Below, one piece after another: positions 30,736 to 57,979 of a stretch of 64,000 nt of DNA. Origin of the DNA: Amaricoccus sp. GTDB lineage: Bacteria; Pseudomonadota; Alphaproteobacteria; Rhodobacterales; Rhodobacteraceae. Below the pieces are notes generated by a model that worked only from the letters and a program-made list of their open reading frames with translations, had not been told where the DNA came from and searched no databases. A program made the translations under genes and the position numbers. The stretch is from positions 294,955 to 358,954 of the forward strand of contig CBDEVG010000045.1 in the NCBI GenBank assembly GCA_965243535.1. Direction: 5' to 3'. The first letter of the stretch is position 1. Each line of letters begins with the position of its first letter.

Positions 30736-30899
30736 CCCATCGGTTCCTTCCCAGGCCCTTCACAGCCCCGAGGGAATGTCGAGGGTCCTCGCTCGTTTTC
30801 GGCTCGTCACGGAGGAGAGAGCGGCGGTGACAACACCGCGCGGGTCTGATTGGATCCGCGCCGCTCGTCGCCTCGTTCACACGAGGCAGAGGGAGGATC

Positions 30900-33101: not shown

Positions 33102-33304
33102 GTCTCCCGCGTCCTCACTGCCCTCCGCCGCGTCTCCTCTGCGACTCGAAGCCCACGTGGCGCGAGCGGAGGGACGCGGGGGTGGGGGGTCCAGGGCCGA
33201 GTTCCGCAGGCCGAAGGGCGAGGATGTCCGAGGCATCGGACCCCCCTCCCCCGTGGCCCGACCCAGCACGCTCGAGGCGTCTCTGCACGAGACCGAGGTC
33301 GTAA

Positions 33305-36300: not shown

Positions 36301-38644
36301 GCGCTTCGCGACGACGCCACGCGCGATCGCGTGTGCATTCTGGGCGTTCGGATTCGCTCCGGCAGGTGCGAGCTCCCAGACGGGGCTCCTCGACGCGTCG
36401 CTCAAGACGTCCCTCCAGCGGCGCGCCGCGAGCCTCGGTCGCGTCCGCGCCACGACGTCCGACGGGTCGGGTCTCTCTCAGCTCGCGGACGAGCTCGCTG
36501 TCGCGATCGAGAAGAACGCGAAGGCGCTCGAGATCGATGCCGACTCCTCCGACGCGCGTGTCGCCGCTGCGTATCTCGTCGAAGAGCTCAGCAAGGAGTC
36601 GGTGCGATTCGCCACGAGCGCGTCGGCCGAGCAGCTCGCCGAGGCCTTGAGGGCGCACCTCGACGTGTCGGGCGCCCGACGTTCCTTCGACGACGACCTC
36701 CGAGCGCTCGAGGGAGAGCCGCGCGCGCGCCTCGCGCTCGTGCGCGCTTGGATGCGAGGCGTCGCGCAGCGATCGCCCGAGCTGTCGCACGCCGAGCTCG
36801 AGGCCAGCGTGCTCGTCGCGACGGACCGCAAGCTCGACCGCGAGGTGGTTCACGCGCTCGTTCAGGCCGACGTGCGAGATCTGTTCGGTCAGCACCCGCG
36901 CATCACCGACCGCAAGCTCACGCTCCGCCTCGACGAGCTGCTCTCGCGTCTGTTCGCCTATCGCACGCACCACGTGCCGGGCTTCCGCGCGTACCGCGAG
37001 CTGCGTCACACGATCCTCGAGCGCGAGCGGAAGCGCCTGCGGCTCGACGAGCTCAAGGCGAAGCCGATGGCGTCGTTCGTGCGCAATCGGCTGGTCGATC
37101 AGGTCTACCTGCCGATGGTGGGCGACAACCTGAGCAAGCAGCTCGGCGCGCTCGGCGAGGGCAAGCGCACCGACACGATGGGTCTCCTCTTGCTCGTCTC
37201 GCCGCCCGGCTACGGCAAGACGACACTCATGGAGTACGTGGCCAATCGGCTCGGCCTCGTGTTCGTGAAGGTCAATGGCCCATCCCTCGGGCACGAGGTG
37301 CGCTCGGTCGATCCTGCGCAGGCGCCCAACGCGACGTCGCGCCAAGAGGTGGAGAAGATCAACCTCGCCCTCGAGATGGGCAACAACGTGATGCTCTATC
37401 TCGACGACATCCAGCACACGAGCTCGGAGCTGCTCCAGCAATTCATCTCGATGTGCGACGCACAGCGCCGGATGGAGGGCATCTGGAACGGAAAGACGCG
37501 CACGTACGATCTGCGCGGCAAGAAGTTCTGCGTCGTGATGGCTGGCAATCCGTACACCGAGACGGGCGAGAAGTTCCGGATCCCCGACATGCTCGCGAAC
37601 CGCGCCGACACGTACAACCTCGGTGAGGTGCTCGAGGGCAAGCTCGAGGCGTTCGCGCTCAGCTACGTCGAGAACTGCCTCACCTCGAATTCCGTGCTCT
37701 CCCCCCTCGCGACGCGGAGCAGCAAGGACGTCGACAAGATCCTTCGCATCGCCATGGGCGAGCAGATCGCGACGACGGAGCTCGAGCACGGCTACTCGGG
37801 CGCAGAGCTGTCCGAGATGACGACGGTGCTGCAGAAGCTCTTCCGCGTGCGCGACGTGCTGTTGAAGGTCAACGCCGAGTACATCCTGAGCGCCAGTCAG
37901 GAAGACGCCTATCGCACCGAGCCGCCCTTCAAGCTGCAGGGCAGCTATCGCAACATGACGAAGATGGCGGGCAAGGTCGTCGCCGCGATGAACGACGACG
38001 AGCTCGAGCGCCTGATCGACGATCACTACCGTGGCGAGTCGCAGACGCTGACCGTCGGCGGCGAGCAGAACCTCCTCAAGCTCGCAGAGCTCCGGAACCG
38101 CATGAGCGACACCCAGCGCACGCGCTGGGCCGAAATCAAGACGGAGTTCAAGCGCCGAAAGACCATGGGCTCGGGCGACGACGACCCGGTCGCGCGCGTG
38201 ACTGGCACCTTGAGCGTGCTCGGGCAGAACCTCGACGAGATCCGGGTCGCGCTCGGGCACGCCGTCTCACGCGCCGACATCGCCGAGAAGGATCGAAAGG
38301 ACATGATCGTCGCGCTCGCGGAGACTGCGAAGCTGCAAGGCGAGATCACGCGGGCGGCGCTGACGGACGGTCGCGACAAGAACCCACCCCCGTGGCTCGC
38401 GGACGGGCTCGCCGAGCTCAACCGCTCGCTGACCGGCCTCGGCAAGCCCGAGGTCAACATCACCGTCGAGCCCCCGGCCGGCTACGCCGAGATGCTCTCG
38501 CACCAAGTGGCGCTCACCGAGCAGACACTCGTTCCGCTCGTGCAGAGCGCCGCGAAGAACCTCGAAGACGCCCATTCGCTCCACGAGCACATGATCCAGC
38601 TGCTCGATCTCTTGAAGAAGATCGATCTCCGTCTCAGGGGCTGA
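33305..38644 (+). CDS. Giant (1779 aa) protein with a single MoxR/AAA_5-type AAA+ ATPase domain near the C-terminus; N-terminal beta-rich (propeller-like) and coiled-coil regions; function unknown
   Basis: GTG start after GAGG. AAA+ motifs LLLVSPPGYGKTTLMEYVA (Walker A), VMLYLDDIQH (Walker B), CVVMAGNPYTETGEKFRIPDMLANRADTYNL (sensor-1 / NP..G..LP...nR pattern typical of MoxR/midasin-type AAA_5). About 1150 aa precede the ATPase, with beta-strand-like repeats in aa 80-420 followed by a coiled coil. No family recognised by eye. Confidence 0.8.
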   Translation: MAEQIDQGNYEILRRRLDEQAKALAERTGQLDDARKKTFGGSELAVVANERVRTENNCVPRDLVSFRGTLVMGYKVFLGLRAETQVHDVLSLHRSVKGEDGSWDLSELPRDTIPGFLNDPRFLKEFTDLFKYYRETKLLQLRVESDRILAIFQTGATLGDQRVLRWSVDAAGNVAYLDERGDRDHVFPTPFDFEWRAVGREQQRTGRHPHLSIEDELFVETIHGDLTIKIEDNTETGQGIYSEQVEDPNQALDDAEIKYAVVGGLILLSMKPYRETKTRYLVFNRRTKEVQRIDAIGQSCRQLPEDHGIVFPGGYYLDVGEGKVFDHQVEGLELFKVIKSPNGEDVLFVYHRRDQGLYQLLSYNLIRKEVATPIVCHGMSLFADGTLVVFRSASEEPSRIHPVQIWRTPYTSAEHAAQAQTDGSFLSKIGNAELVRGISDSYSIAKMAQKAELVRSTYEEIVKNSERVSDAYHWVGHVEAFQLKSAIFEVKKTAELVIDELEKVLAMKKRAADALDQAKRSRDELVRKTRPEDMRSVDDFMGALTSLRGQRGQLVSLREIRYVDLAAIDALEKATIADQEKVSTACVVFLSGDDALVPVSSKLDEIDHSIAKVEKTVDARPLGEELERVGSGLTVLSEVVGGLEVDDPVQRAKILENIGDVFAKQNRVRAVLEARRRELAAIEGRASFGAQMKLLGQSVSSSLAVADSPEKCDAELARLLVSLEEIEAKFGELDEFVLELTKKREEITDALGAKKQQLLEERQKRAQSLMSAAERILEGVGRRSRTFKTEDELNAYFASDAMVAKLRQIAEQLRGIGDSVRSDEVDGKGKAARSQALRALRDKLDLFEEGDSVVRLGRHKFSVNNQPLELTIVPRTIGDESETTLALHLTGTDFFETIDDPALRAAKPYWTQALVSETSDVYRGEYLAGSMLFDVEEGKSGLTIPKLTEALREDAAFLDLVRGYAQPRYDEGYDRGVHDADAAKILAQVLTLRASAGLLRFATTPRAIACAFWAFGFAPAGASSQTGLLDASLKTSLQRRAASLGRVRATTSDGSGLSQLADELAVAIEKNAKALEIDADSSDARVAAAYLVEELSKESVRFATSASAEQLAEALRAHLDVSGARRSFDDDLRALEGEPRARLALVRAWMRGVAQRSPELSHAELEASVLVATDRKLDREVVHALVQADVRDLFGQHPRITDRKLTLRLDELLSRLFAYRTHHVPGFRAYRELRHTILERERKRLRLDELKAKPMASFVRNRLVDQVYLPMVGDNLSKQLGALGEGKRTDTMGLLLLVSPPGYGKTTLMEYVANRLGLVFVKVNGPSLGHEVRSVDPAQAPNATSRQEVEKINLALEMGNNVMLYLDDIQHTSSELLQQFISMCDAQRRMEGIWNGKTRTYDLRGKKFCVVMAGNPYTETGEKFRIPDMLANRADTYNLGEVLEGKLEAFALSYVENCLTSNSVLSPLATRSSKDVDKILRIAMGEQIATTELEHGYSGAELSEMTTVLQKLFRVRDVLLKVNAEYILSASQEDAYRTEPPFKLQGSYRNMTKMAGKVVAAMNDDELERLIDDHYRGESQTLTVGGEQNLLKLAELRNRMSDTQRTRWAEIKTEFKRRKTMGSGDDDPVARVTGTLSVLGQNLDEIRVALGHAVSRADIAEKDRKDMIVALAETAKLQGEITRAALTDGRDKNPPPWLADGLAELNRSLTGLGKPEVNITVEPPAGYAEMLSHQVALTEQTLVPLVQSAAKNLEDAHSLHEHMIQLLDLLKKIDLRLRG

Positions 38645-40899: not shown

Positions 40900-41865
40900 T
40901 TAGAATCCCCAGACGATCGACAGGAACGCCGTCGTGGTGAGCCCGAGCCACGCGAAGCGGCGTAGGTCGCTGGGGGCTCGCAGGAGTCCAACGAGCGAGA
41001 CGAGCGAGACGACCACGGCGATGCTCGCGAGCGGGAGCCCCCCACCGAGGTCGAGCCGCGCGAAGATGCGCGAGAGCGGGTCGTCATCGAGGCGCTGCCC
41101 TTCGGCGGAGAGGGGCACGACGTAGTCACCGTGGTCGTAGGCCGAGACGAGCCTGGCTCGACCCCGCTCCATCGTCACCTGGCTGAAGATCCCGAGCGGC
41201 GCACGCACGAGCTCATGCTCCTCGTCTCGCGTGATCGTCACCCCGACGGCGAAGAGAGCAGCGTCCTCGAGGTCGACCCGGTACCCGAGCGACTCCGTGG
41301 CATGCGGTGGGATGGGCCGCGTGCGATCGACGCGCCACATCGGCGCGGAGACGAGCATCGACACGAGGAGCGGCCCGGTGATGGCGAGGATCGTGACGCA
41401 CGGCATCGTCCAGACGCGCGTCGCAGCGTAGGCGCTCGTCCACCACCATCGTCGAGTCCGCACGAGCACGCCGCTCATGGCGCCCAACGCGAGGGGCAGC
41501 GCCAGGACTGCAGGATCGCCGAACACGAGGATCAGCAGGCACGGTGCGCCGAACGCCGCCCCGACGAGCCATCCTCGCCCGACCCACGCGATGACTCCTG
41601 CGCGACTCCATCGCTCGATGGACCGACTGAGGCTCGAGACGGGGCTCTCGTGCGCAGAATGAACGAGCGTCAGCCACGGAAGGAGGAGTGGACCGAGGAG
41701 CACGGCGAGCAACCAGGCGCTGACACCGAGCGTCGCGTGGTCCACGACTCCGGCGAGGTCGATCGCCCAGAGCCACGCGCCGGACGCGACCGCGATGAAC
41801 GGCGCCAGCTGCGGCTGCCAGATGCCATCTCGCTCGACACGCGCCGGGTGGTTGTCGGGTGTCAT
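40900..41865 (-). CDS. Integral membrane protein (hypothetical); last gene of the KASIII-to-GNAT operon
   Basis: 321 aa, multiple TM helices. Its start lies 7 nt downstream of the FemAB-like gene stop. Confidence 0.5.
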   Translation of the reverse strand: MTPDNHPARVERDGIWQPQLAPFIAVASGAWLWAIDLAGVVDHATLGVSAWLLAVLLGPLLLPWLTLVHSAHESPVSSLSRSIERWSRAGVIAWVGRGWLVGAAFGAPCLLILVFGDPAVLALPLALGAMSGVLVRTRRWWWTSAYAATRVWTMPCVTILAITGPLLVSMLVSAPMWRVDRTRPIPPHATESLGYRVDLEDAALFAVGVTITRDEEHELVRAPLGIFSQVTMERGRARLVSAYDHGDYVVPLSAEGQRLDDDPLSRIFARLDLGGGLPLASIAVVVSLVSLVGLLRAPSDLRRFAWLGLTTTAFLSIVWGF

Positions 41866-41872
41866 GGGTCGT

Positions 41873-43027
41873 TCAGAGGTCGAAGTGCTCGATGAGGGGC
41901 GCGCCGAGGTGATCCATCAGGGCGCCGAGCGCGCGCCAGGGGGCTCGGCGGTGGCGCGGTAGATGGCGATCGAACACGGCGAGGTGCTCGAGCTCGGGCA
42001 CTGCGCCGCGGTTCTGCTTGAAGTCGCTCACCCCCGCGCTGTCGTGGACGAGCACGCCACGCGCGAGCGCATCCGCGGACGAGAGCGCAGCGAGCATGCG
42101 GTAGAGACCGCGCTCCTGCGGGAGGCGCGTGTCGTAGCCGAGGATGGGCACGTAGTAGAGACCGTGACGCACCCACGCGGCGAAGGCACCGTCGAGCGAT
42201 CCCTCGCGCGAGACGAGCGCGCGGCCTTCGAGGAAGCCGCAGCGGATCGTGTGGATGACGTAGGCGCGCGTGAGCTGCGGGTTGTGGCGCGACCACTTCT
42301 CCACGTAGAGCAGATCATAGAGGTCGCGCACGCGAGAGAGGCCGTCGTCATCGAGCTCGCGCAGATCGACCACACGGTAGCTGCCCTCGGTCAGTGCACG
42401 ATCGAGGAGACGTTGGTCCTTGCGACCGTCACGGTGACCGAGCGCGTCTCTGGGATCCTGGAAGAGCACACGTCGACTGAACACGAAGCGGGCGCCGAAG
42501 GCCTCGAGCGCATCGCGCAGCTGACCGCTCGAGCGTCGGTCGACACCACGCACGACGATGGCGTGATCGGGGAACCGCTCACGAAGCGCGGCGATCAGCA
42601 CGTCCCACGCGTCGTCGAAGAGGAGCGCGTGGAGCGTGGTCGAAGTGAGCCAGTTGTCGACGTAGACGACGCGATCGAAGCGCGCGCGGCGGAACGCGCG
42701 ACCGAGGCCGGCGACGACGCGTCGCAGCGGTCGCTCGATCGAGGGTGCCTCGAGCTTCTCGATCTCCTCGGCGCCGTAGGTGATGTAGTGCGTGTACGGC
42801 GAGACGATGTAGCTCTGGCCCTCGCGCTCGCGCGAGACGGTGAACGGCACCACGACGCCGTCGACGATCGCGATGCCCAGCTCCGCGTCGAGGTTCGGCG
42901 CCGCGAACGTCGGACCGTGGGTGAGCAGCGGAGCGAAGTACGCGTGCGCGGCGCGCCCTTCGTCGGTCTCGGGCCAGGGCACTTGCGAGGGTGCGCACGC
43001 CGTGTGGAGCGAGACCCGGTGCGTCAC
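41873..43027 (-). CDS. FemAB/GNAT-fold (Acetyltransf_6-like) acyl- or aminoacyl-transferase
   Basis: Protein-like part of long ORF 41873..45025. The proposed GTG start at 43027 overlaps the TGA of the upstream gene (GTGA). Sequence YVDNWLTSTTLHALLFDDAWD...LYDLLYVEKWSRHNPQLTRAYVIHTIRCGFLEGRALVSREGSLDGAFAAWVRHGLYYVPILGYD resembles FemAB-related / BioF2-like N-acyltransferases. Confidence 0.45.
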   Translation of the reverse strand: MTHRVSLHTACAPSQVPWPETDEGRAAHAYFAPLLTHGPTFAAPNLDAELGIAIVDGVVVPFTVSREREGQSYIVSPYTHYITYGAEEIEKLEAPSIERPLRRVVAGLGRAFRRARFDRVVYVDNWLTSTTLHALLFDDAWDVLIAALRERFPDHAIVVRGVDRRSSGQLRDALEAFGARFVFSRRVLFQDPRDALGHRDGRKDQRLLDRALTEGSYRVVDLRELDDDGLSRVRDLYDLLYVEKWSRHNPQLTRAYVIHTIRCGFLEGRALVSREGSLDGAFAAWVRHGLYYVPILGYDTRLPQERGLYRMLAALSSADALARGVLVHDSAGVSDFKQNRGAVPELEHLAVFDRHLPRHRRAPWRALGALMDHLGAPLIEHFDL

Positions 43028-44340
43028 GCGCCGGCCTCGGGGCCGAGGGCACAGACGATGCGCCGCAGCTTCTTCATGGGGTCGCGCGCGGGCGAGCCGA
43101 GACGATCGATCGTCACGCGTACGCCGCGAGAGGCGAAGAGCGCGACGAGCGCCGACGCCGCCCGGTCCCACGCGTCGGTCGGATCGACGTGGAGCGAGAT
43201 GCGGTCGATCGCTGTCTGCAGCACGCGGTAGTCGGTGATGCGCGCGTCGGCGAGCATCACCGCGCGGCGCGCGAAGTCGGGGAACAGTGGCGCGCTGTGG
43301 TCGTGGGTCTGGAGGAGATCGTCGGCGCGGCCCTCGATGCGATCGAGCCCGACGGTCACCAGGCCGCAGGGGCACGGTGAGCGGCGCGGCACCAGCACGT
43401 CGTCGAGTCGGTAGCGTACGATCGGCTGCGAGCGCCTCCGGAAGTCCGTGACGATCGGGTGGAACGCGCCTTCGTGCGAGCCGCACACCGGCTCGCGCTC
43501 GATGACCGCGACGTCCTCCGCCAGGTGCACGGTACCGAACGCACAGCTCGCGCCGAGGAAGCCCTCGGTGGCTTGGTAGATCTGGTGGACCGTGACGCCG
43601 AAGCCGCGACGGATCACGCCCTCGTCGATCGGATCGAGCACCTCGGCCACGGACACCACGATGCGCGGCGCGATCTCGAGCTCGCCGCGCACGCGGGCCT
43701 CGGCGAGCAGACGAAGCATCGAGGGCGGCGCGATCAGGATCGTCGGGCGCTGATCGCGGAGCGCCGCGACGTGCGCGTCGAAGGGGATCGCGAGATCGAA
43801 GAAGCGGAACGCGATGCGGCGGCTGCCCACGCTCTCGTAGAGGTTCGAGCTCGCGCGGAGGAAGAACGCGACACGCTCGGGCGGAAACCCCGGGATCCCC
43901 GTGGTGAGCACGCGCGCGATCGCCGAGCCGGCCCACTCCGCGCGCTCGTCGGTGGAGGCGACGAAGAGACCGCGGTTTCCCGACGTGCCGCTCGAGAGGC
44001 CCACCGTGTAGCCACGCAGCATCGGGGAGAAGTCGCGATCGCGCTCGGCACGCAGCGCGACCTCGAGCGCCTCGTCGCGCCGAACGCGCACGGTCACGAC
44101 ATCGTCCCAGCGCGCCATCATCTGGGCCTTGTTCGTGATCGGGAGCTCGCGCCAGCGCGTGCTCGAGCGGCCCTCGAAGCGCTCCGCGAGGTGGCTGGAT
44201 CGCGACCGAGCCCACTCGAGGAAGCGCACGACCTTGCGCTCCTGCCAGACCTCGAGCGAAGCGCGCGTCGGAAACACCGTGGGCTCGATGCGCGCGCGCA
44301 GGAACGAGCGCACGAGGATGCGGCGGTCGACGTCGCTCAC
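43024..44340 (-). CDS. Adenylate-forming enzyme, PaaK / coenzyme-F390-synthetase-related family
   Basis: GTG start at 44340 overlapping the upstream TGA. Motif GYTVGLSSGTSGNRGLFVAS (P-loop of the ANL/PaaK superfamily), QIYQATEG (A5-like) and a C-terminal domain. About 438 aa. Confidence 0.65.
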   Translation of the reverse strand: MSDVDRRILVRSFLRARIEPTVFPTRASLEVWQERKVVRFLEWARSRSSHLAERFEGRSSTRWRELPITNKAQMMARWDDVVTVRVRRDEALEVALRAERDRDFSPMLRGYTVGLSSGTSGNRGLFVASTDERAEWAGSAIARVLTTGIPGFPPERVAFFLRASSNLYESVGSRRIAFRFFDLAIPFDAHVAALRDQRPTILIAPPSMLRLLAEARVRGELEIAPRIVVSVAEVLDPIDEGVIRRGFGVTVHQIYQATEGFLGASCAFGTVHLAEDVAVIEREPVCGSHEGAFHPIVTDFRRRSQPIVRYRLDDVLVPRRSPCPCGLVTVGLDRIEGRADDLLQTHDHSAPLFPDFARRAVMLADARITDYRVLQTAIDRISLHVDPTDAWDRAASALVALFASRGVRVTIDRLGSPARDPMKKLRRIVCALGPEAGA

Positions 44341-45239
44341 ACGATCGCCCGGGCGTCGCTCGATGGGGCGACCGTCGGGCCGACGTGCGCCGAGGGGATG
44401 CGCAGTCGTCGGACCGCTTCGCAGTGCGCAGGCACGATGCGGATGGAGGGCGTGCGCTCCGCGAGATCGGCGATGCGACCGAGCGTGGTGCCGTAGAGGC
44501 CGTAGCTCGAGAAGAGCGCGCGCGTGATCGGGTGCGGGAGTTGGCGACGGCGCACGCTCTCGGTCGTCCAGCACGCGTCGGCGACGAGGAAGTCGAGCGA
44601 GCCGTCCGCTGCGCGCAGGAACGCGCCGAGCTGTCCCTCGACGTGACCCGGCAGCTCGACCAGCAAGATCGAGCCATCGCCGAAGAGATCGACACCGTAG
44701 TGGAACGGCGCGCACTCGGGCGGCAGGCGGACGGCCTCGGACTCGAGGCGCGGCACGAGCGCGCGCGAATCGAGATCCGCGGGCAAGAGCGCGCGGAGGA
44801 AGCCCGCCGCCGTGCCTCGGATGCGACCGAGCGGCAGAAACGAGCGGAGCGCGCGCTCGAGGTAGACGAGCCGCGCACGAGGGAAGTCGCAGAGCCCTGC
44901 CACGTGGTCGGCGTGGAAGTGCGAGACGATGACGTGCGTGATGTCGCTCGCGCGGATGCCGCGTGCCTCGAGCTGCGCGAGCGCGGTGCGCGCGGGATCG
45001 ATCGTGATGGGCGTGACCCACGCATAGAACCGCTCGGGAAATGGGCGCGTCGCGTGGAGGAAGCGCGGCGAGTAGCCGGTGTCGAACAAGATCGGTCCGC
45101 GCGTGGGGTGATGGATGAGCGCGACGATCGCGGGAAAGCGCAGCGGTGCGAAGCGTCGGTTCTGGAGCACCACGTGCTCCGGGTGCATGCAGTGGCCCAC
45201 CTCGAGCAGCTCGAGTCGGACGCTCGCCTGGTTCGTCAT
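44337..45239 (-). CDS. Metallo-beta-lactamase-fold hydrolase
   Basis: HxHxDH motif VIVSHFHADHVAGL. Start ATG at 45239 overlaps the upstream stop (ATGA). 300 aa. Confidence 0.75.
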   Translation of the reverse strand: MTNQASVRLELLEVGHCMHPEHVVLQNRRFAPLRFPAIVALIHHPTRGPILFDTGYSPRFLHATRPFPERFYAWVTPITIDPARTALAQLEARGIRASDITHVIVSHFHADHVAGLCDFPRARLVYLERALRSFLPLGRIRGTAAGFLRALLPADLDSRALVPRLESEAVRLPPECAPFHYGVDLFGDGSILLVELPGHVEGQLGAFLRAADGSLDFLVADACWTTESVRRRQLPHPITRALFSSYGLYGTTLGRIADLAERTPSIRIVPAHCEAVRRLRIPSAHVGPTVAPSSDARAIV

Positions 45240-46252
45240 GCGGATCCTTTCGGGGGCGGGCGCAGATCGAGCGACGCCAGATACCGTGCGAGACCTTCCT
45301 CGAGCGCCACGCACGGCGCGTAGCCGAGGTCGCGGCGGGCGGCGGTGAGGTCGAGCGTCATCGTGCGCGCGAGCAGGCCGAGCGTGTACCGCGTGATGCG
45401 CGGCTCGATCGAAGGAAGGAGCGTGCGGTGGAGCGCCTCGAGCACACCCGCGACGACGAGCGCACGGTCCGCGCTCACGTGGCGCGTGGGTCTCGCGAGG
45501 CCGAGGCCATCGGCGAGCGCCGCGATCACCTCGCCGATCGGTCGCGGGTCGCCGCTCGTCACGTGGTAGGTGCCACCGATCGCACGATCGGAGGAGAGCG
45601 CACGCACGAGCGCCTGCACCGCGTCGTCGATGAAGGTGAGATCGACGAGCGAGCGTCCGCCGTCGAGCAGCGGGAATTGCCCGCGGCGCAGAGCCTCCAC
45701 GACGCGCGGCAAGATCGTGGTGTCGCCCGGTCCGTAGAGCGCGCGGGGCCGCAGGATGACGGTCGCGAGGCCTCGTGCGTGGGCGCGCGTGACGACGCGC
45801 TCGGCCTCGAGCTTGGTGCGCGCGTAGTCGTTCACCATCACCCCCGGCAGCGGATCGCTCTCGCGGATGCCCTCACGCGCGCGGAAGTCGAAGTACACGG
45901 CGGGCGTCGAGACGTGGACCAAGCGCGCGACGTGGAAGCGCTCACACGCATGGACGACGTTCTCGGTCGCGCGAACGTTCGCGCGATCGAAGGCACGCGG
46001 ATCGCCCCACGGGCTCGAGAGCGCAGCCGAGTGAACCACGGCGAGCGCGCCGCGGATCACGCGATCCGTCTCCGTCGGCATCGCGAGATCGGCGGGCTCG
46101 AAGCGCGCGCCCGTCTCGCGTGCGAGCGCGGCGCCGCGACGACGGTCCCGGCCGGTCGCGATCACGGAACGCCCCTCTGCGCGGAGACGACGCACGAGCG
46201 CGCCGCCGAGGAAGCCCGTCGCGCCGGTCACGACGATCGGCAGATCCGTCAC
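45236..46252 (-). CDS. NAD-dependent epimerase/dehydratase (extended SDR) family protein
   Basis: Rossmann motif IVVTGATGFLGGALVRRL, catalytic YARTK (YxxxK). GTG start at 46252 overlaps the upstream TGA. Confidence 0.75.
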   Translation of the reverse strand: MTDLPIVVTGATGFLGGALVRRLRAEGRSVIATGRDRRRGAALARETGARFEPADLAMPTETDRVIRGALAVVHSAALSSPWGDPRAFDRANVRATENVVHACERFHVARLVHVSTPAVYFDFRAREGIRESDPLPGVMVNDYARTKLEAERVVTRAHARGLATVILRPRALYGPGDTTILPRVVEALRRGQFPLLDGGRSLVDLTFIDDAVQALVRALSSDRAIGGTYHVTSGDPRPIGEVIAALADGLGLARPTRHVSADRALVVAGVLEALHRTLLPSIEPRITRYTLGLLARTMTLDLTAARRDLGYAPCVALEEGLARYLASLDLRPPPKGSA

Positions 46253-47424
46253 GAGCTCACCTCCGGCGCACCCGGATCGTGCGGACCGTTCCACTCGATG
46301 TCGAGCGTCGAGGCCGCGAGCGGCGAGCATCGATGAACGATCGCGCGACGCAGGAGCTCGCCTGCAGTGGCGATCTGCACGAGCGTCGCCGCGGGATCGT
46401 GGCGATCCCACGCGACGTCACGCGACGCGCTCAGCGTGGACACGAACGAGGCACCGAGCTGCCGCGGGCCGTAGAGCCACATCGGGAGCGCCAGCATCGC
46501 AGAGGCCGTGGCTCGCGGTCTCGCGAGCGGTGCGTGCGGATCGACGTAGGCGCGCGGCAGGCTCGGATCGCCGCGGAAGAGGTGCGCGCCGCTGGTCGCG
46601 CGCGGGTTGCACTCGATCGCGAGGATGCCGCGGCCCGGAACGTCGAAGAGGTCGAACGCGACCTGCCCCGTGAAGCGCTCGCGTGCGACGAACGCCGCGA
46701 CCCACGCCTCGACGCGCGGGTCGAGCAAGGGACGGAACAAGATCGCGGAGCCCTCGCCGCTGCGCGGGCCGGCGGTGACCTCGAGCGCATACGCCGAGTG
46801 CAGCGTGAGACGTCCCTCGTGCGCGATCGAGAACGTCGCGATCGGCGTGCCGCGCAGGCGCTCCTGCACGACCCACGCGCGCGTCTCGCTGACGTCGTCG
46901 ACGCGAGCCAGATCGCGCGGCGACACGACGGCGTTCGACGCGAAGCGCGAGAACGCCGGCTTGAGCACCACCTCGGGGCCGCGCTCGCGCACGATCCGCG
47001 CGAGCAGGCCGCGATCGGTGACGCGCTCGGTCGCCGGAGCGTCGAGGCCCGCGGCGAGCGTGCGCTTCGCGAAGGCGTGCTTGTCGTGGAGCGGCGTGAG
47101 CGCCTCGATCGACATCGCGAAGACACGCGTCTGCGGCGCGAGCACGTCGAGGCGTCGCGCGACGTGAAACGTCTCTTCGCACGTGGGCACGAGGAGCTCG
47201 ATCGACTCGCGGCGGATCACGTCGCGCAGCCCTTCGGCGAACGCGCGTGCGTCGCGATCGCGACGCGGCGCGGGCACCCGGTAGGAGCGCCGCACCGCGC
47301 GCGAGCCGCGCAAGAGGTGCGCACGGAACGACTCGGCGACGAAGACCTCGTGACCGCTGGCGTGGAACGCACGCGCGAGCTCGAGCGTGACCGGCGCGCG
47401 CGCGCCCGTGAGGAGGACTCGCAT
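46249..47424 (-). CDS. ATP-grasp domain protein
   Basis: MRVLLTGARAPVTLELARAFHASGHEVFVAES (pre-ATP-grasp), VVLKPAFSRFASN and LAIECNPRATSGAH (ATP-grasp core). 391 aa. Confidence 0.65.
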   Translation of the reverse strand: MRVLLTGARAPVTLELARAFHASGHEVFVAESFRAHLLRGSRAVRRSYRVPAPRRDRDARAFAEGLRDVIRRESIELLVPTCEETFHVARRLDVLAPQTRVFAMSIEALTPLHDKHAFAKRTLAAGLDAPATERVTDRGLLARIVRERGPEVVLKPAFSRFASNAVVSPRDLARVDDVSETRAWVVQERLRGTPIATFSIAHEGRLTLHSAYALEVTAGPRSGEGSAILFRPLLDPRVEAWVAAFVARERFTGQVAFDLFDVPGRGILAIECNPRATSGAHLFRGDPSLPRAYVDPHAPLARPRATASAMLALPMWLYGPRQLGASFVSTLSASRDVAWDRHDPAATLVQIATAGELLRRAIVHRCSPLAASTLDIEWNGPHDPGAPEVSS

Positions 47425-47443
47425 GTGCTCAGCGCCTCATCGC

Positions 47444-48445
47444 TCAGAACCGAAGCACCATCGCGCCGAGCGAGAGACCCGCGCCCGTCCCGCAGAGGAG
47501 CGTGAGGTCGCCGCGACGAAGTCGGCCGCTCTCGATCGCCTCGTAGAGCGTCGCGGGGATCGATGCGGCCACACAGTTGCCGAGGCGATCGATCGTGCGG
47601 ACCACACGCGACTCGTCGAGCCCGAAGAGCGGCAACATGGCGAGCCCGGCGTGACTCGCTTGGTGAGGGATCACGACCGCGTCGCGGAGCGACACAGCCT
47701 CGGGGAGTGCGCGTGAGAGCACGTCGAGGAACGGACGCCCGCGCCCGAGCACGCGACGCAAGAGCTTCGGTCCCTCCATGTGGAACACGTTCTGCGAGGC
47801 GCGGGTGAGCTCGTCGTTGGGGTGGACGCGTGTCCCGCCGCCTTCGATCGCTGCGAGGTCCGCGTCGTCGCCGAAGGTGCCGAAGCGGGCGGCGAGGATC
47901 TGCGAGCTCGTGCGCTCCGCGGGCACGAGCACCGCGGCCGCGGCGGCATCACCGAAGAGCGCGGCGCTCTCGCGATCGCGCCAGTCGATGCCCGCGGAGC
48001 CGACGTCGCTCGAGACGATCAGCGCGCGTCGGCAGCGCCCGGTCGCGATCGACTGCGACACGAGATCGAGCGCGGCGAGGAACGAGAGACACGTGGCGTG
48101 CACGGACATCGACGCGATGCCGCTCTTGCCGAGGCCGAGCGCGCGCTGGATCAGCGCGCCGCCATCGGGGATCGACTGCTCGGCCGTGCCGGACGCGTTC
48201 ACGATCAGATCGAGGGACTCGGCGCGGACCTCGGCCTTCTCCAGCGCCTCGCGCGCGGCGTTTGCTCCCATCAGGCTCGCGGTCTCGTCTCCGCTGCGGT
48301 CCGCGTAGCGACGCTCGTGGACGCCGGTCGCACGCGCGAGCTCGTCGGCGTCGACGCCGAGGCGCGCGGCAACTTCGTGCGTCGTGACGATCCGTCGAGG
48401 GAGGTAGCGGCCGACGCCTGCGATGCGAACGGCGCTGCCGCTCAT
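47444..48445 (-). CDS. 3-oxoacyl-ACP synthase III (KAS III / FabH-like)
   Basis: Start MSGSAVRIAGVGRYLPRRIVTTHEVAARLG, active-site region GIASMSVHATCLSFLAALDLV (Cys), HQASHAGL (His) and GNCVAASIP (Asn). 333 aa. Confidence 0.8.
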   Translation of the reverse strand: MSGSAVRIAGVGRYLPRRIVTTHEVAARLGVDADELARATGVHERRYADRSGDETASLMGANAAREALEKAEVRAESLDLIVNASGTAEQSIPDGGALIQRALGLGKSGIASMSVHATCLSFLAALDLVSQSIATGRCRRALIVSSDVGSAGIDWRDRESAALFGDAAAAAVLVPAERTSSQILAARFGTFGDDADLAAIEGGGTRVHPNDELTRASQNVFHMEGPKLLRRVLGRGRPFLDVLSRALPEAVSLRDAVVIPHQASHAGLAMLPLFGLDESRVVRTIDRLGNCVAASIPATLYEAIESGRLRRGDLTLLCGTGAGLSLGAMVLRF

Positions 48446-48469
48446 GGTGGCCGGACGGTAGCATGCGGC

Positions 48470-49435
48470 GTGACCACGCCCGCCCCTCCGAGGCGCGACG
48501 ACTCGAGCCTCCCCGTCCGCGTGCGCGGCCTCGTGAAGCGCTACGGCGACCGCAACGTCGTCGACGGAATCGACCTCGACGTGGTGCACGGCGAGACCGT
48601 GGGCCTGCTCGGCCCCAACGGCGCCGGCAAGACGACGACGCTCGAGATGGTCCAAGGGCTCACGACGCCGACTGCTGGGAGTGTGAGAGTTCTCGGTCTC
48701 GAGCAGCCGCGTGATCGCGAGTCGGTGGCGGCGCGCATCGGCGTCGCGCTGCAGGAGACGAGCCTGCCCGACAAGCTCACGGCGCTGGAGACGATCACGC
48801 TGTTCCGATCGTTCTACGCGCGCGGGCCCGACGAGGCGGCGCTCCTTCGCGACATGCACCTCGAGGCGCACGCGAGCACGCTCGTGCGCGCGCTCTCCGG
48901 CGGCGAGCGACAACGCCTGGCGCTCGCGTGCGCGCTCGCAGGCGACCCCGAGCTCGTGATCCTCGACGAGCCCACGACGGGCCTCGATCCCGAGGCACGA
49001 CACCGCCTCTGGGATCGCATCGAAGCCCTCGCCGACGCGGGCACCACGGTGCTCCTCACCACGCACTTCATGGACGAGGCGACGCGGCTCTGCGATCGCA
49101 TCGTCGTGATCGATCGCGGACGCATCATCGCGGAGGGCACGCCCGAGGCGCTCGTCGCGGCACACGTCGGATCGCACGTCGTCGAGCTCGAGCTCACACG
49201 CGGCGCGCTGTCGGTCGAGCACGCGCAGGCGATCGAGGGAGTGCGCGTCGCGCGCCTCGTGGGGCGCACGCTCCGCCTCGGCACCGATCGCGCGGACGAC
49301 GTGCTCGGGCGTGCGCGCGCGCTCGCGACCTCGAAGGACGTCGCGCTCGGTCGGGTCGCGATCACCCCCGCGACGCTCGAGGACGTCTTCCTCGTGCTCG
49401 CGGGCCGCGGCCTCGGAGAGGGCGAGCCACGATGA
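48470..49435 (+). CDS. ABC transporter ATP-binding protein (ABC-2/DrrA-like exporter)
   Basis: Walker A GPNGAGKTTTL, signature LSGGERQRLALACAL, Walker B LVILDEPTTGLD. GTG start (alternative GTG near 48509). Divergent from the KAS III operon. Confidence 0.8.
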   Translation: MTTPAPPRRDDSSLPVRVRGLVKRYGDRNVVDGIDLDVVHGETVGLLGPNGAGKTTTLEMVQGLTTPTAGSVRVLGLEQPRDRESVAARIGVALQETSLPDKLTALETITLFRSFYARGPDEAALLRDMHLEAHASTLVRALSGGERQRLALACALAGDPELVILDEPTTGLDPEARHRLWDRIEALADAGTTVLLTTHFMDEATRLCDRIVVIDRGRIIAEGTPEALVAAHVGSHVVELELTRGALSVEHAQAIEGVRVARLVGRTLRLGTDRADDVLGRARALATSKDVALGRVAITPATLEDVFLVLAGRGLGEGEPR

Positions 49436-50454
49436 TGCGTCACCCGCTCGTGCAGCTGCTCCTCGTCCGCCTGCGCACCTTTCAGCGCGAGCCCGAGGCG
49501 CTGTTCTGGACGTTCGGCTTTCCGCTCGTGCTGACGCTCGTGCTCGGCATCGCGTTCCGTCCCGTCGAGGGCGAGCCGATCCCGATCGTGGTGATCGAGG
49601 GGCCCGACGCAGACGAGATCACCGCACGGCTCGAGCGCGACGAGGATCTCGCGATCAGGCGCGCGACGGATGCGAGCGAGGCGCGACGCCTGTTCGTCCG
49701 GGGCAGCGCGCTCGCGATCGTGGAGGGATCCACGGAACGCCCCGTTCTTCATACCGATCCGACTCGCCCCGAGTCTCGGCTGGCGCACGCGCGGGTCGAA
49801 CGCGCCCTGATCGATGCGCCGCTCGCGATCGAGGACGCGCCGATGCGCGAGCCGGGTACGCGATACGTCGACTTCGTGGTGCCGGGGCTCGTGGGCATGA
49901 ACGTGATGACGGTGTGCCTCTGGGGCATCGGATGGAACGTCGTCGAGTCGCGATCGAAGAAGCTCCTGCGCCGCCTCGCGGTCACGCCGATGAAGAGACG
50001 CCACTACCTCGGCGCGTTCCTCCTCGCGCACGTGGTGCTGGTGCTCGTGACGCTCGCGGTGGTGCTGGGCTTCGCGTGGGCGAGCTTCGGCGTCGGCGTC
50101 GAGGGGCGCGCCATCGACTACGTCGTCATCGTCGTGCTCGGCTGTCTGGCGTTCTCCGCGATGGGCGTGCTCCTCGCGAGCCGCACCGACAACGTCGAGG
50201 TGCTCTCGGGCATGGTGAACGCAGCGTCGCTCCTCCAGCTCGTGGCGAGCGGCGTCTTCTTCTCCACGTCGCGCTTCCCCGAGTGGGCGCTCGTGGTGCT
50301 GCGGGGCCTGCCGCTCACGGCGCTCGTCGACGCGCTCCGAGCGATCGCGCTCGAGGGACGCGGGCTGACGGAGCTGCCCGTGGAGGTCGCGGTGCTCACG
50401 GCGTGGACCGTCCTGGCCGGTGCGATCGGGGTACGGATCTTCCGCTGGAGCTGA
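49432..50454 (+). CDS. ABC-2 type transporter permease
   Basis: ATG overlaps the ATPase stop (ATGATG). Six TM segments and an ABC-2 family profile. Confidence 0.75.
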   Translation: MMRHPLVQLLLVRLRTFQREPEALFWTFGFPLVLTLVLGIAFRPVEGEPIPIVVIEGPDADEITARLERDEDLAIRRATDASEARRLFVRGSALAIVEGSTERPVLHTDPTRPESRLAHARVERALIDAPLAIEDAPMREPGTRYVDFVVPGLVGMNVMTVCLWGIGWNVVESRSKKLLRRLAVTPMKRRHYLGAFLLAHVVLVLVTLAVVLGFAWASFGVGVEGRAIDYVVIVVLGCLAFSAMGVLLASRTDNVEVLSGMVNAASLLQLVASGVFFSTSRFPEWALVVLRGLPLTALVDALRAIALEGRGLTELPVEVAVLTAWTVLAGAIGVRIFRWS

Positions 50455-50508
50455 CCGGTCGACGACCTCGGGATCGACGCTCTCGTGCTCGGTGGTAGAC
50501 CCGCGCGC

Positions 50509-51297
50509 ATGCGTCGGACGGTTCACGTTCATCGCCTCGGCACGGTCGGCTACGGTGAGGCGCACACGCTGCAGAAGCGCCTGCAGGAGGCGCGCGCACG
50601 CAAGCTCGTGCCCGACACGCTGCTCCTGCTCGAGCATCCGCCGGTGATCACGCTCGGTCGCGGCGCGAAGGAGCAGAACCTGCGTTTTCCTCGCAGCTCG
50701 CTCGTCGCGCGCGGCATCGAGGTGCACGAGACGGGGCGCGGCGGCGACGTCACGTACCACGGCCCCGGACAGCTCGTGGGGTACCCGATCCTCGATCTCT
50801 CTCCCGATCGACAGGACGTGCGCCGCTACGTGAAGGACCTCGAGGAGTCGATGATCCGCCTGGTCGCGCGCTGGGGTCTGACCGCGACGCGCATCGAGGG
50901 GATGAACGGCACGTGGCTCACCGATGGCGAGCTCGGTGATCGCAAGATCGGCGCGATCGGCGTGCGCCTCTCGCGCTGGGTCACGATGCACGGCTTCGCG
51001 ATCAACGTCTCGACGTTGCTCTCGCATTTCTCGTTGATCGTGCCGTGCGGGATCGTGGACAAGGGCGTGACCTCGCTCGAGCTCGAGCTCGGCCGCGCGA
51101 TCCCGATCGACGAGGTCATCGCCGCGTACCTCCCGATCTTCGGCGACCTCTTCGACGCCGATCTCGTCGAAGTGCACGGCGATCCGCTCGCGGCGCTGAG
51201 CCCCGACGCGCTCGCCGAGATCGACGACGTGCTCGGAGCAGCCGCGAAGAACGAGGCCGAGCGCGCGGCGGAGCGTGCGGCCGAGCTCCGCACGTGA
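50509..51297 (+). CDS. lipB: Octanoyltransferase LipB
   Basis: LLLLEHPPVITLGRGAK, HETGRGGDVTYHGPGQLVGYPILDL and KIGAIGVRLSRWVTMHGFAINV are conserved LipB motifs. Confidence 0.8.
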   Translation: MRRTVHVHRLGTVGYGEAHTLQKRLQEARARKLVPDTLLLLEHPPVITLGRGAKEQNLRFPRSSLVARGIEVHETGRGGDVTYHGPGQLVGYPILDLSPDRQDVRRYVKDLEESMIRLVARWGLTATRIEGMNGTWLTDGELGDRKIGAIGVRLSRWVTMHGFAINVSTLLSHFSLIVPCGIVDKGVTSLELELGRAIPIDEVIAAYLPIFGDLFDADLVEVHGDPLAALSPDALAEIDDVLGAAAKNEAERAAERAAELRT

Positions 51298-51307
51298 GCG
51301 AGGGCCC

Positions 51308-52213
51308 GTGAGCGAGACGCCGCGCTCGAGCGCCGCGACCGGCACGGCGCTCGTCGTGTTCTCGGCCGTGATGTGGGGCACGTGGAGCCTGTGGTTCCGT
51401 CCGACGGAGCTCTCGGGACGAACGACCGCGCCGTTCGTGTTCGCGTGCATGGCGCTGAGCTCGGTGCCGCTGATCCTCCGCGAGCGCGCCGCGCGAACGA
51501 CCCCGATCGTCTGGGATCGCCGCGTGATCGCGATGCTCGCGGCGTACACGATCTTCGATGCGCTGAACGCCGCGACCTTCTTCCACGCGATGACGATCAC
51601 CACCGTCGCTGTCGCGGTCCTCACGCACGACCTCGCCCCGGTGCTCGTCGCCTTGCTCGCGCCACGCGTCGACGGCGTGCGCGTGCCGGGCGCAGGTCCA
51701 GCCGCGCTGCTCGCGCTCGCGGGCGTCACGCTCTTGCTCGAGCCTTGGCGCGAAGGCGCGCTCGGCGGCGACGTGCTGCTCGGCGCGGGGCTCGGGCTCA
51801 CCAGCGCCTTCGCCTACGCAGGCAACGTGTTCCTCGGTCGCAAGCTCACGATCGCGATCGGGCCTGCGACGACGCTCGGCGTGCACGCGCTCGGCGCGCT
51901 CCTGCTCTTGCTCCCGCTCGCGGGCTCCGAGCTCTTCGCCATCGAGGGACGAGACCTCCCGTACCTGCTCTTCGCGGGGCTCGTGCCGGGCGCGCTCGCA
52001 GGCCTCGCGTTCTTGCGCGGCGCGGCCGCGATCGGCAGCGCGCGCGCCGCGATCCTCGCGTTCGTCGAGCCCGTGATCGCGTGCCTCGTGGGCTGGCTCG
52101 CGTTCGGTGAGCGCTTGTCGCCGTGGGCGATCGTGGGTGGAGCGCTGGTGCTCGTCGCAGGCGCGATCGTGTCGCGTGGGCCTCGCGCCGAGGCACTCGT
52201 GCACGAAGCGTGA
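51308..52213 (+). CDS. EamA/DMT-family transporter
   Basis: Ten predicted TM helices in two EamA-like halves. Probable GTG start at 51308 just after the lipB stop. Confidence 0.6.
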   Translation: MSETPRSSAATGTALVVFSAVMWGTWSLWFRPTELSGRTTAPFVFACMALSSVPLILRERAARTTPIVWDRRVIAMLAAYTIFDALNAATFFHAMTITTVAVAVLTHDLAPVLVALLAPRVDGVRVPGAGPAALLALAGVTLLLEPWREGALGGDVLLGAGLGLTSAFAYAGNVFLGRKLTIAIGPATTLGVHALGALLLLLPLAGSELFAIEGRDLPYLLFAGLVPGALAGLAFLRGAAAIGSARAAILAFVEPVIACLVGWLAFGERLSPWAIVGGALVLVAGAIVSRGPRAEALVHEA

Positions 52214-52288
52214 GTTCCCTCGCCGGTCCCTCGTGCGCATGCGGATCGGCGCTAGCGAGGGCTCGGTCGCGTGCCATTCTCGCGAACC

Positions 52289-53605
52289 ATGAGCAGCACG
52301 CCCGTCGATCTCTCGTCGTTCGTTCGTCCTCACGACTCGACCAGTCCGCGCGTGTCCGCGATGGCCGGCAAGATCGTCGGCTCCGAGATCCTGAAGATCG
52401 CGGGAGAGATTCGCGCCCTCGTCGCGAAGGGTCAGCCTGTCTGCAACCTCACGGTGGGCGACTTCGACCCGAAGCAGTTCTCGATCCCCGAGTCGCTGCG
52501 CCAGCACATCGTCGCCGCGTACGACGCGCACGAGACGAACTACCCGCCCTCGAACGGGATGCCGCAGCTGCGCGACGCGGTGCAGCGGTTCTACCAGCGC
52601 GAGCTCGGCCTCTCGTATCCGCTCGACTCGATCCTCATCGCGTCGGGCGCGCGCCCGGTCATCTACGGCATCTACCGCGCGGTCGTCGATCCGGGAGACA
52701 CGGTCGTCTATCCGGTGCCGAGCTGGAACAACAACCACTACGTCACCATGACGGGCAGCAAGAGCGTGACGGTGCAGTGCGGCCCCGAGACGCGTTTCCT
52801 CCCCACGCGCGAGATGATCGAGAAGGCGCTGCCGGGGGCGCGGCTCGTGTGCCTCAACACGCCGCTCAACCCCACGGGCACAGCGATGGCGCGCGACATG
52901 GTGCTCGGCGTGTCCGAGGCGATCGTGCGCGAGAACGAGCAGCGTCGTTCGCGCGGCGAGAAGCCCGTCTATCTCATGTACGACCAGATCTACTGGATGC
53001 TCACGGCCGCGGGGACCGAGCACGTCTCGCCGCCGCAGCTCGTGCCGGAGATGGCGCGCTACACGATCTTCGTGGACGGAATCTCGAAGGCGTTCGCGGC
53101 CACGGGTGTGCGTGTGGGCTGGGCGATCGGACCGACGGACGTCATCGATCGCATGAGCGCCATCCTCGGTCACGTCGGCGCGTGGGCACCACGCGCGGAG
53201 CAGATCGCGACGGCGAAGATGCTCGAGGAGCCGGGCGCGTGTCGCGCGTACGTCGACACGCTGAAGTCCGGCATCGTCGGTCGCTTGAGCGCCCTCCACG
53301 AGGGCTTCCAAGCGCTCAAGGGGCAAGGGCTCCCCGTCGACTCGCTCTCACCCGAGGGCGCGATCTACCTCACGGTCCAGCTCGCACCGTTCGGCAAGAA
53401 GACGCCCGCGGGGCAGACGCTCACGACGAACGAAGAGGTGCGTCGCTACGTGCTCGATGCCGCGGGCATCGGCATCGTGCCGTTCCAGGCGTTCGGCTAT
53501 CCCGGCGACACCGGATGGTTCCGGCTCAGCGTGGGCGCGGTCTCGATGCGGGAGATCCAGGACGCGCTGCCGCGACTCGGTGAGGCGCTGCGCGCGCTGG
53601 CCTGA
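52289..53605 (+). CDS. Pyridoxal-phosphate-dependent aminotransferase (class I/II, AspAT-like)
   Basis: NLTVGDFDP, PLNPTG, and PLP-lysine in FVDGISKAFAATGVRVGW. 438 aa. Confidence 0.8.
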   Translation: MSSTPVDLSSFVRPHDSTSPRVSAMAGKIVGSEILKIAGEIRALVAKGQPVCNLTVGDFDPKQFSIPESLRQHIVAAYDAHETNYPPSNGMPQLRDAVQRFYQRELGLSYPLDSILIASGARPVIYGIYRAVVDPGDTVVYPVPSWNNNHYVTMTGSKSVTVQCGPETRFLPTREMIEKALPGARLVCLNTPLNPTGTAMARDMVLGVSEAIVRENEQRRSRGEKPVYLMYDQIYWMLTAAGTEHVSPPQLVPEMARYTIFVDGISKAFAATGVRVGWAIGPTDVIDRMSAILGHVGAWAPRAEQIATAKMLEEPGACRAYVDTLKSGIVGRLSALHEGFQALKGQGLPVDSLSPEGAIYLTVQLAPFGKKTPAGQTLTTNEEVRRYVLDAAGIGIVPFQAFGYPGDTGWFRLSVGAVSMREIQDALPRLGEALRALA

Positions 53606-57780: not shown

Positions 57781-57979
57781 GGGGGCGACGCATACCACGC
57801 AGCACGCACGCCACACACGAGGCGTCCCGGCTTCGCCGTTCTTCACGCGGACTTCAGGGTTCGCAGAAGAAATGACCGGCGTTCGTCGTACGTTCCAAGC
57901 CGCACGCGGTAGTCTCGGTCTGCGCGGCAGAGGTCGCGTACGAAGTGCGACGCGCCTCCCACCCAAGAGAGCCACGACC

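Follow-up and report, generated by a model that had tools for sequence, protein, structure and literature searches.

Seven closely packed genes lie on the minus strand (40900-48445) of a 64,000-nt stretch of contig CBDEVG010000045.1 (assembly GCA_965243535.1, positions 294,955 to 358,954; hereafter, the window). Two questions arise from this locus: which of the genes belong together, and what their products might make. In order of transcription they encode a ketoacyl synthase of type III (KAS III), an ATP-grasp protein, a short-chain dehydrogenase/reductase (SDR), a metallo-beta-lactamase-fold hydrolase (MBL), an adenylating enzyme of the ANL class, a GNAT-like protein and a membrane protein, and two ABC transporter genes are read divergently from them. 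The original prediction took all seven for one operon of a probable small-molecule or cell-surface decoration pathway. We resolved the gene structure, the family and fold assignments, the intact catalytic motifs, the conserved synteny and the modularity of the locus. KAS III, SDR, MBL and ANL are the core of a cassette that is horizontally mobile and widely distributed, and the window carries its commonest add-on, the ATP-grasp and GNAT pair. Our preferred reading of its function is a tentative one: an Ole-like route to a branched hydroxy-acid or lactone lipid, which would then be aminoacylated and exported.

Gene structure and conservation of the cassette

The seven open reading frames (ORFs; Table 1) had one stop codon each, and their G+C content at third codon positions ranged from 0.85 to 0.92 in a window of approximately 70% G+C. 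Four consecutive junctions were 4-nt start/stop overlaps on the minus strand (GTGA at 46249-46252, ATGA at 45236-45239, GTGA at 44337-44340 and GTGA at 43024-43027), and the remaining two were gaps of 19 nt (KAS III/ATP-grasp) and 7 nt (GNAT/membrane protein); every coordinate predicted for this block was reproduced. The start codons were backed by full-length alignments with homologues. No terminator-like site was found inside the operon, compared with 1.8 expected from shuffled sequences, and the promoter scan revealed no sigma-70-like site within it. Overlaps of 4 bases are by themselves common in GC-rich operons. The operon stands above chance because the order of six of its genes is conserved at other loci, not because of the overlaps alone. 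The best protein matches of the window were to Sandaracinaceae (myxobacteria), with metagenome-assembled genomes (MAGs) at 98-100% identity.

Table 1. Positions of the operon genes, the divergent transporter genes and other features of the window
Feature	Positions	Strand	Remarks
KAS III gene	47444-48445	minus	first gene of the operon
ATP-grasp gene	46249-47424	minus	
SDR gene	45236-46252	minus	
MBL gene	44337-45239	minus	
ANL gene	43024-44340	minus	
GNAT-like gene	41873-43027	minus	
Membrane-protein gene	40900-41865	minus	last gene of the operon
Divergent intergenic region	48446-48469		24 nt between the KAS III ATG and the ABC ATPase gene; sequence GGTGGCCGGACGGTAGCATGCGGC
ABC transporter ATPase gene, NodI/DrrA-like	48470-49435	plus	Pfam ABC_tran
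ABC-2 permease gene, DrrB/NodJ type	49432-50454	plus	Pfam ABC2_membrane_3 and ABC2_membrane
LipB octanoyltransferase (above cut-off), EamA transporter and class I/II aminotransferase genes	50485-53605	plus	3' of the ABC-2 genes
Second KAS III gene	56734-58032	minus	NF006829 FabH subfamily, 316 bits vs. cut-off of 249

Relatives turned up in at least 591 species when one genome of each was scanned with an ANL family alignment; the 80 best loci were taken further. These came from Paenibacillus, Brevibacillus, Bacillus, Metabacillus, Nostocales, Chlamydiae, Legionellales, Bdellovibrionales, Rhodothermales, Flavivirga, Anaerolineae and Victivallaceae. Sixty-eight loci had flanking DNA sufficient for a tblastn count of the genes, which gave KAS III in 65, SDR and MBL in 64 each, ATP-grasp in 57 and GNAT in 45. 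The complete set of six genes was retained in 38 of the 68 loci, and the order was that of the window in 37 of these 38. Proteobacterial copies were added by a protein search of plasmid records. Overlapping junctions recurred in all annotated copies (Bacillus, Escherichia coli, Rhizobium, Paraburkholderia and Ketogulonicigenium).

The partners of the core varied among these copies. A Bacillus mycoides plasmid carried the six genes in an order identical to that of the window. In Paraburkholderia, ATP-grasp and GNAT came after the four core genes; Rhizobium had the core followed by GNAT, a Rieske protein and ATP-grasp, and Ketogulonicigenium had the core alone. The core was followed in E. coli by a PAP2_3 phosphatase/transferase, an FA_hydroxylase and an FA_desaturase; this island, located between narI and purU, was detected in 674 of 5,426 complete genomes (approximately 12%). 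A glycosyltransferase of family 21 (GT21; ceramide-glucosyltransferase/HpnI type) replaced ATP-grasp at five loci, and Nonomuraea had the ATP-grasp and GNAT pair without the core. Taken together, the gene counts, the core-only copies and the alternative partners indicate an invariant four-gene core with swappable add-on modules. The distribution was patchy, and some copies were plasmid-borne.

The seven-gene unit of the original prediction was not retained, the conserved unit being six genes built on the four-gene core. The membrane protein is a lineage-restricted orphan with only six relatives among 1.84 billion representative proteins; it had no family match, and about five to six hydrophobic segments were predicted in it. 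At one related locus from Sandaracinaceae (L007) its homologue was set off from GNAT by a Memo/radical-SAM block and was followed by DoxX and LysR genes, and a second such locus (L005) had no homologue of it. The Memo/radical-SAM block lay directly after GNAT in both (12704-15206 in L005 and 11593-14137 in L007), with AMMECR1 confirmed in L005 only. It was missing after GNAT in the window, implying a local deletion or rearrangement, and its absence accounts for the position of the orphan gene 7 nt behind GNAT. The membrane protein is probably co-transcribed with the operon here, yet it stands outside the conserved cassette. Membership of the flanking LysR and DoxX genes in the system was likewise not supported; they were found to form a divergent pair of their own, with DoxX converging on the operon end.

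Several observations were made beside individual copies. A Rieske oxygenase (VanA_C-type) accompanied the six-gene cassette at four loci (L001 4910-7840, L010, L081 6144-7124 and L091 9315-10304), two of them from Nostocales and the others from Flavivirga and Rhizobium, which suggests an optional oxygenation step. A fused ABC exporter was inserted inside the cluster in Nostocales. An Rfam match to CRISPR-DR28 in the ABC exporter gene of L001 (7118-7141, 36.8 bits, E = 0.011) is almost certainly due to chance, and no riboswitch was found upstream of the cassette in an Rfam scan of seven low-GC loci. On the megaplasmid of Pseudomonas sp. Leaf58 (L089, 6088-8212), MBL and ANL were adjacent without KAS III. 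This arrangement, with SDR-like and ATP-grasp-like genes kilobases away, may represent a cassette that has degenerated or been rearranged. The seven-gene narI-purU island was located at 5149-12030 of L088 (E. coli NZ_CP141085.1). Its PAP2_3 gene corresponds to c1693 of CFT073 and is annotated by some sources as inositol phosphorylceramide (IPC) synthase. As narGHJI, purU, rssAB and galU are on the same record, this 'plasmid' may be a misassigned chromosome fragment.

Family and fold assignments of the six enzymes

The enzyme classes named in the original prediction were all upheld, those of KAS III, SDR, MBL and ANL by Pfam or NCBIfam models and that of ATP-grasp by fold. The operon KAS III matched Pfam ACP_syn_III and ACP_syn_III_C and scored 293.9 bits against NF005541/PRK07204, under the cut-off of 402. 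Its nearest solved structures, aligned over the full length, were CorB (4yuc, 262.6 bits) and MxnB (4v2p, 247.9 bits), compared with 153 bits or less for FabH structures of the ordinary type. No OleA structure was present among the 38 PDB matches at E up to 1e-20. The catalytic motifs containing Cys (ATCLSF), His (IPHQ) and Asn (GNC) lined up with those of CorB, showing an intact triad. Residue I92 occupied the position of V94 in CorB and MxnB (counted by hand from the alignment) and is thus non-acidic and hydrophobic. By these similarities the operon KAS III is a condensing enzyme of the CorB/MxnB subfamily with a FabH fold. It is not the housekeeping enzyme, since the second KAS III gene (Table 1) passed the FabH cut-off and is probably the housekeeping FabH of this genome. 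The ORF of that second gene comprises 432 aa, and its FabH match fell in two stretches, reflecting an N-terminal extension, an insertion or a true start further downstream.

The SDR matched Pfam Epimerase and 3Beta_HSD and is an extended SDR of the 3-beta-HSD/NAD-epimerase type, with GATGFLGG and YARTK motifs. It scored 226.6 bits over the full length of NF042422 (OleD, 2-alkyl-3-oxoalkanoate reductase), far under the cut-off of 580; the next unrelated family was HpnA with 121 bits. OleD was matched by 10 of 10 diverse orthologues from distant taxa, with the best E-value of any family. The MBL matched Pfam Lactamase_B. Its nearest families were the N-acyl-homoserine lactone (AHL) lactonases AttM, AiiA and AhlS together with 4-pyridoxolactonase, which were matched by 9-10 of 10 orthologues, all under cut-off, and GcL lactonase was its top PDB match. 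No thioesterase or glyoxalase II family was among its matches. The putative metal ligands H107, H109, D111 and H112 (HxHxDH), H199 and D221, as well as H272, were invariant. Going by its nearest families, the MBL is a hydrolase closest to lactonases.

The ANL protein passed TIGR02304 ('F390 synthetase-related protein'), as the original prediction had proposed: its score was 409.6 bits (cut-off 251.9), and the alignment spanned model positions 5-425 of 430. Its P-loop (LSSGTSGNRG), the YQATEG motif and the C-terminal K424 were invariant across 12 homologues of 43-73% identity, and its solved relatives AjiA1, PaaK and NatL2 were distant (38 bits or less). Judged by family membership, it is a PaaK-like adenylate-forming enzyme and serves as the marker of the cassette. 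The true coenzyme F390 synthetase has a curated family of its own and acts on coenzyme F420 in methanogens; the 'F390 synthetase' label of TIGR02304 appears to be a name given by homology only.

The ATP-grasp protein scored 294 bits against NF005315 (PRK06849-like), under the cut-off of 406, and no Pfam ATP-grasp model matched it above threshold. Its AlphaFold2 model had a mean pLDDT of 93.5, and the 50 best listed Foldseek matches of this model were all ATP-grasp enzymes with TM scores of 0.5-0.6, relatives including 2pn1, CPS, PylC, RizA and PurK. Residues K155, E271, N273 and R275 were invariant in 37 homologues, the first three agreeing with the Lys, Glu and Asn by which ATP-grasp enzymes bind nucleotide and Mg. 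The modelled fold points to a carboxylate-amine ligase as its probable activity.

For the GNAT-like protein, the model (pLDDT 93.7) had a tandem-GNAT fold, and Fem and MprF were the nearest structures. The protein itself had no family match, including none to PF13480 (Acetyltransf_6) at E up to 1, and this model was matched by 10 of its 27 homologues, with a best E of 2.5e-8. TIGR03019 was matched by none of the 27 family members at E up to 0.1, so the two FemAB-related models suggested by the original prediction did not identify the window protein. A sequence search of the PDB with the family gave no match, and the fold comparison alone was informative. It shares its fold, and no sequence-level match, with the solved members of the Fem/MprF group (FemX, FemA, MprF/L-PGS and Sbb17/Sba18). 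By its modelled fold, it is a transferase of the Fem/MprF group, whose members are aminoacyl-tRNA-dependent, and it may use tRNA itself.

Proposed pathway and rival explanations

Two kinds of biosynthetic cluster were rejected at the outset. Neither the operon nor the scanned neighbours contained a PKS, NRPS or ACP domain (polyketide synthase, nonribosomal peptide synthetase and acyl carrier protein, respectively), which excludes a PKS or NRPS cluster and agrees with the earlier statement that the enzyme set is not canonical in this respect. A cluster for a peptide that is made by ribosomes and modified after translation (RiPP), such as a graspetide, was also rejected, because gaps of only 0, 7 and 19 nt in the operon and 24 nt upstream leave no room for a precursor-peptide ORF.

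The nearest functional parallel to the core was OleABCD with its relatives LstABCD (lipstatin) and NltABCD (nocardiolactone), whose four enzyme roles, likewise packed into a single tight operon, match those of the core one for one: a condensing enzyme with the thiolase fold, a 3-beta-HSD-type NAD(P)H reductase, an ATP-dependent adenylating enzyme and a lactone-acting hydrolase. A lipid-like scaffold with a free hydroxyl and a carboxyl or lactone group is favoured, since KAS III is nearest to CorB/MxnB, MBL is nearest to lactonases and the relatives of the add-ons decorate lipids (aminoacylation by MprF/Fem, glycosylation by GT21, and PAP2_3 with a lipid hydroxylase and desaturase). In the proposed route, KAS III would fuse two acyl or beta-ketoacyl thioesters head to head; these would be drawn from CoA or fatty-acid-synthase pools, as no carrier-protein gene is present in the cluster. 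The SDR would reduce the 3-keto group to a hydroxyl, and the ANL enzyme would adenylate the carboxylate and either close a lactone or ester or pass the acid on. The MBL may open or process the lactone or a thioester. The ATP-grasp enzyme and the Fem/MprF-fold transferase would then put one or more amino acids on the scaffold, the transferase probably taking aminoacyl-tRNA and the acceptor being a hydroxyl or amine of the scaffold. Finally, in the lineage of the window, export of the product would fall to the divergent NodIJ/DrrAB-like ABC-2 pump. We infer the substrates, the order of the steps, the tRNA dependence and the export. As a whole, the route has somewhat less than an even chance of being correct.

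Several points weigh against this route. Its functional hints come from similarity below the cut-offs (226 vs. 580 bits for OleD; 71 vs. 390 bits or weaker for the lactonases). The Ole parallel is one of analogy, as homology at the family level is confined to the reductase: the KAS is of the FabH/CorB type and not OleA, the ANL is a PaaK-like TIGR02304 protein and not OleC-like, and the hydrolase has the MBL fold and not the alpha/beta-hydrolase fold of OleB. The ATP-grasp and Fem-like module of the window cassette is a further addition relative to OleABCD. Third, CorB and MxnB (corallopyronin and myxopyronin), which share with the operon KAS III the Cys-His-Asn triad and the hydrophobic V94 position and are its best solved relatives, are stand-alone ketosynthases of trans-acyltransferase PKS/NRPS clusters that join two carrier-protein-bound beta-keto polyketide chains into an alpha-pyrone; the window cassette has no such PKS or carrier protein, and its partner enzymes differ. 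Fourth, a KAS III with this intact triad could equally perform a decarboxylative condensation with a malonyl thioester. The likeness of the modelled transferase to the Fem/MprF fold is no proof of tRNA dependence. Lastly, the orthologous ABC-2 pair adjoins the cassette only in Sandaracinaceae.

The decarboxylative option is part of the strongest rival, a linear Pqs-like route whose product, a small diffusible acid or peptide conjugate, would leave the cell as a signal or antibiotic. The ANL enzyme would activate an aryl or alkyl acid, KAS III would add one malonyl unit decarboxylatively, the SDR would reduce the beta-keto group, the MBL would free the beta-hydroxy acid as a PqsE-type thioesterase, and ATP-grasp and GNAT would attach amino acids. 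Alkylquinolone biosynthesis uses this very set of an ANL ligase (PqsA), a FabH-like KAS III (PqsD) and an MBL hydrolase (PqsE), and PqsD (3h76, E = 1.6e-24) was among the PDB relatives of the operon KAS III. The solved ANL relatives PaaK, AjiA1 and NatL2 activate aryl acids, the Rieske oxygenase accompanies the cassette in four distant taxa, and the triad fits the decarboxylative reaction. However, the KAS III score for CorB/MxnB (262 bits) far exceeded those for PqsD (90 bits) and FabH (at most 153 bits), and the SDR was nearest to OleD, not to a FabG-type ketoacyl reductase. The MBL was lactonase-like and not PqsE-like, the thioesterase and glyoxalase II families being absent from its matches, and no anthranilate genes were present. 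Further, a lipid is the kind of product suggested by the other add-ons (GT21, PAP2_3, and the lipid hydroxylase and desaturase). The Pqs-like route is accordingly possible but on the unlikely side.

The Ole-like lipid route can also be stated in a bolder form, in which the four-gene core takes the part of OleABCD without being orthologous to it and makes a two-tailed 2-alkyl-3-hydroxy acid or beta-lactone lipid capped by lineage-specific head groups. This form is doubtful. If it were true, the head groups would be aminoacyl residues from aminoacyl-tRNA in the window, most Firmicutes and cyanobacteria, a sugar where GT21 is present, and a phospho-head group added by the PAP2/IPC-synthase-like enzyme in extraintestinal E. 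coli; the products would form a new class of bacterial lipids, of the envelope or secreted, with a broad phylogenetic range.

The cassette might instead serve an alpha-pyrone or lactone signal, with KAS III alone making a dialkyl-pyrone in the manner of CorB, MxnB and PpyS and the other enzymes tailoring it, or with the MBL lactonase turning it over. CorB and MxnB, the nearest characterized relatives of KAS III, form alpha-pyrones (PMC5506619, PMC5724707), and I92 at the V94 position is hydrophobic and not the catalytic Glu of PpyS and OleA (PMC4578411). The resemblance of the MBL to quorum-quenching lactonases fits as well. Against this, no LuxR- or PluR-type receptor gene adjoined the cassette in the window or at the inspected loci, and the cluster held no source of beta-ketoacyl carrier-protein substrates. 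PpyS-type synthases are usually solitary, and four coupled extra enzymes argue for a longer pathway. A pyrone signal is therefore improbable. Published work on nocuolin (NocG) and malleicyprol deals with other ketosynthase clades.

The general idea of a small-molecule or surface-decoration pathway in the original prediction was reasonable; its link to PEP-CTERM/exosortase loci, by way of their FemAB-like and acyl-ligase genes, failed. TIGR03019 matched 0 of 27 GNAT family members, and no exosortase-type domain was found among the scanned neighbours, which covered part of the window; no polysaccharide gene was seen in the neighbours examined. In favour of such a link, the GNAT fold is of the Fem type, and the UniRef cluster of the E. 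coli MBL orthologue is named 'GumP-like'. Xanthomonas gumO (annotated as 3-oxoacyl-ACP synthase III) and gumP (annotated as metal-dependent hydrolase) are situated downstream of the xanthan operon (PMC2585010, PMC5554336); going by published annotation (PMC5554336) and UniRef name, gumO, chd2 and gumP may correspond to the core. However, no part in xanthan synthesis has been demonstrated for gumO or gumP (PMC2585010), and the flanks of most of the 80 loci were mutually unrelated (among them regulators, exporters and peptidases); the glycan-active enzymes seen there numbered just two, one a GH18 hydrolase and the other a glycosyltransferase. A surface or exopolysaccharide decoration pathway of this PEP-CTERM-related kind is thus very unlikely. 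Least credible of all is a chance adjacency of ordinary housekeeping genes for fatty acids or the cell wall. Each of the classes does include housekeeping enzymes (FabH, epimerases, Ddl-type ATP-grasp ligases and Fem transferases), but a separate FabH above its curated cut-off lies in the window, the cassette is patchy (12% of E. coli genomes) and partly plasmid-borne, and gene order and overlapping junctions are kept across phyla.

Divergent exporter, neighbouring genes and significance

The exporter of the original prediction was confirmed as an ABC-2 system with a NodI/DrrA-like ATPase, starting close to the KAS III start on the opposite strand. The same 24-nt spacing was found in L005, and no sigma-70-like site was detected in this intergenic region. 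If the ATPase began at an alternative GTG near 48521 (read from the sequence), the gap would be approximately 75 nt. The ATPase scored 246 bits with NodI and 240 bits with drrA (TIGR01188), under the cut-off of 312 for the latter. The permease, with about six predicted hydrophobic segments, had a weak drrB score (51.7 bits, under the cut-off of 223) and is coupled to the ATPase by an ATGA overlap at 49432-49435. An ATPase orthologue (76-80% identical) was divergent from the cassette in L005, L007 and L008, and permease orthologues were found in L005 and L007 only. Other exporters stood beside or within the cassette elsewhere: the Nostocales cluster contained an ABC exporter, Brevibacillus had EamA, and ABC-2 systems were present in an actinobacterial MAG and in Nonomuraea. 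The LipB, EamA and aminotransferase genes 3' of the ABC-2 pair had conserved counterparts in L005, and L007 shared LipB; they probably reflect lineage synteny and not the pathway.

Elsewhere in the window, the plus-strand region at 30831-38644 encodes two successive proteins: the first, of 756 aa, had no significant match in Pfam, and the second, of 1779 aa, carries DUF3686 ('ATPase involved in DNA repair') as well as DUF7902 and an AAA domain. Its G+C content of 0.65-0.68, compared with 0.70-0.75 around it, may mark the region as an acquired island or a defence-like system. A bacterial dynamin-family GTPase of 712 aa (58546-60684, plus strand) and a DUF1688 protein (24255-25628, minus strand) appear unrelated to the operon.

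The open-access full text searched contained no paper describing the cassette or its product, and the only leads were the CorB/MxnB/PpyS papers and the notes on gumO and gumP. Annotation databases hold TIGR02304, PRK07204 and PRK06849 as names only. The gap in knowledge is a widespread one, as the coupled cassette occurs in hundreds of species of Myxococcota, Firmicutes, Cyanobacteria, Chlamydiae, Proteobacteria and other groups, and roughly one complete E. coli genome in eight has a related island. The window copy alone is of more modest interest, being a cassette copy slightly rearranged at its 3' end and joined by a lineage-specific exporter. The E. coli and Bacillus versions make the cassette experimentally tractable. 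If its product is a new class of lipid or lactone with swappable head groups, the cassette would have a bearing on envelope biology, host interaction and natural-product discovery.

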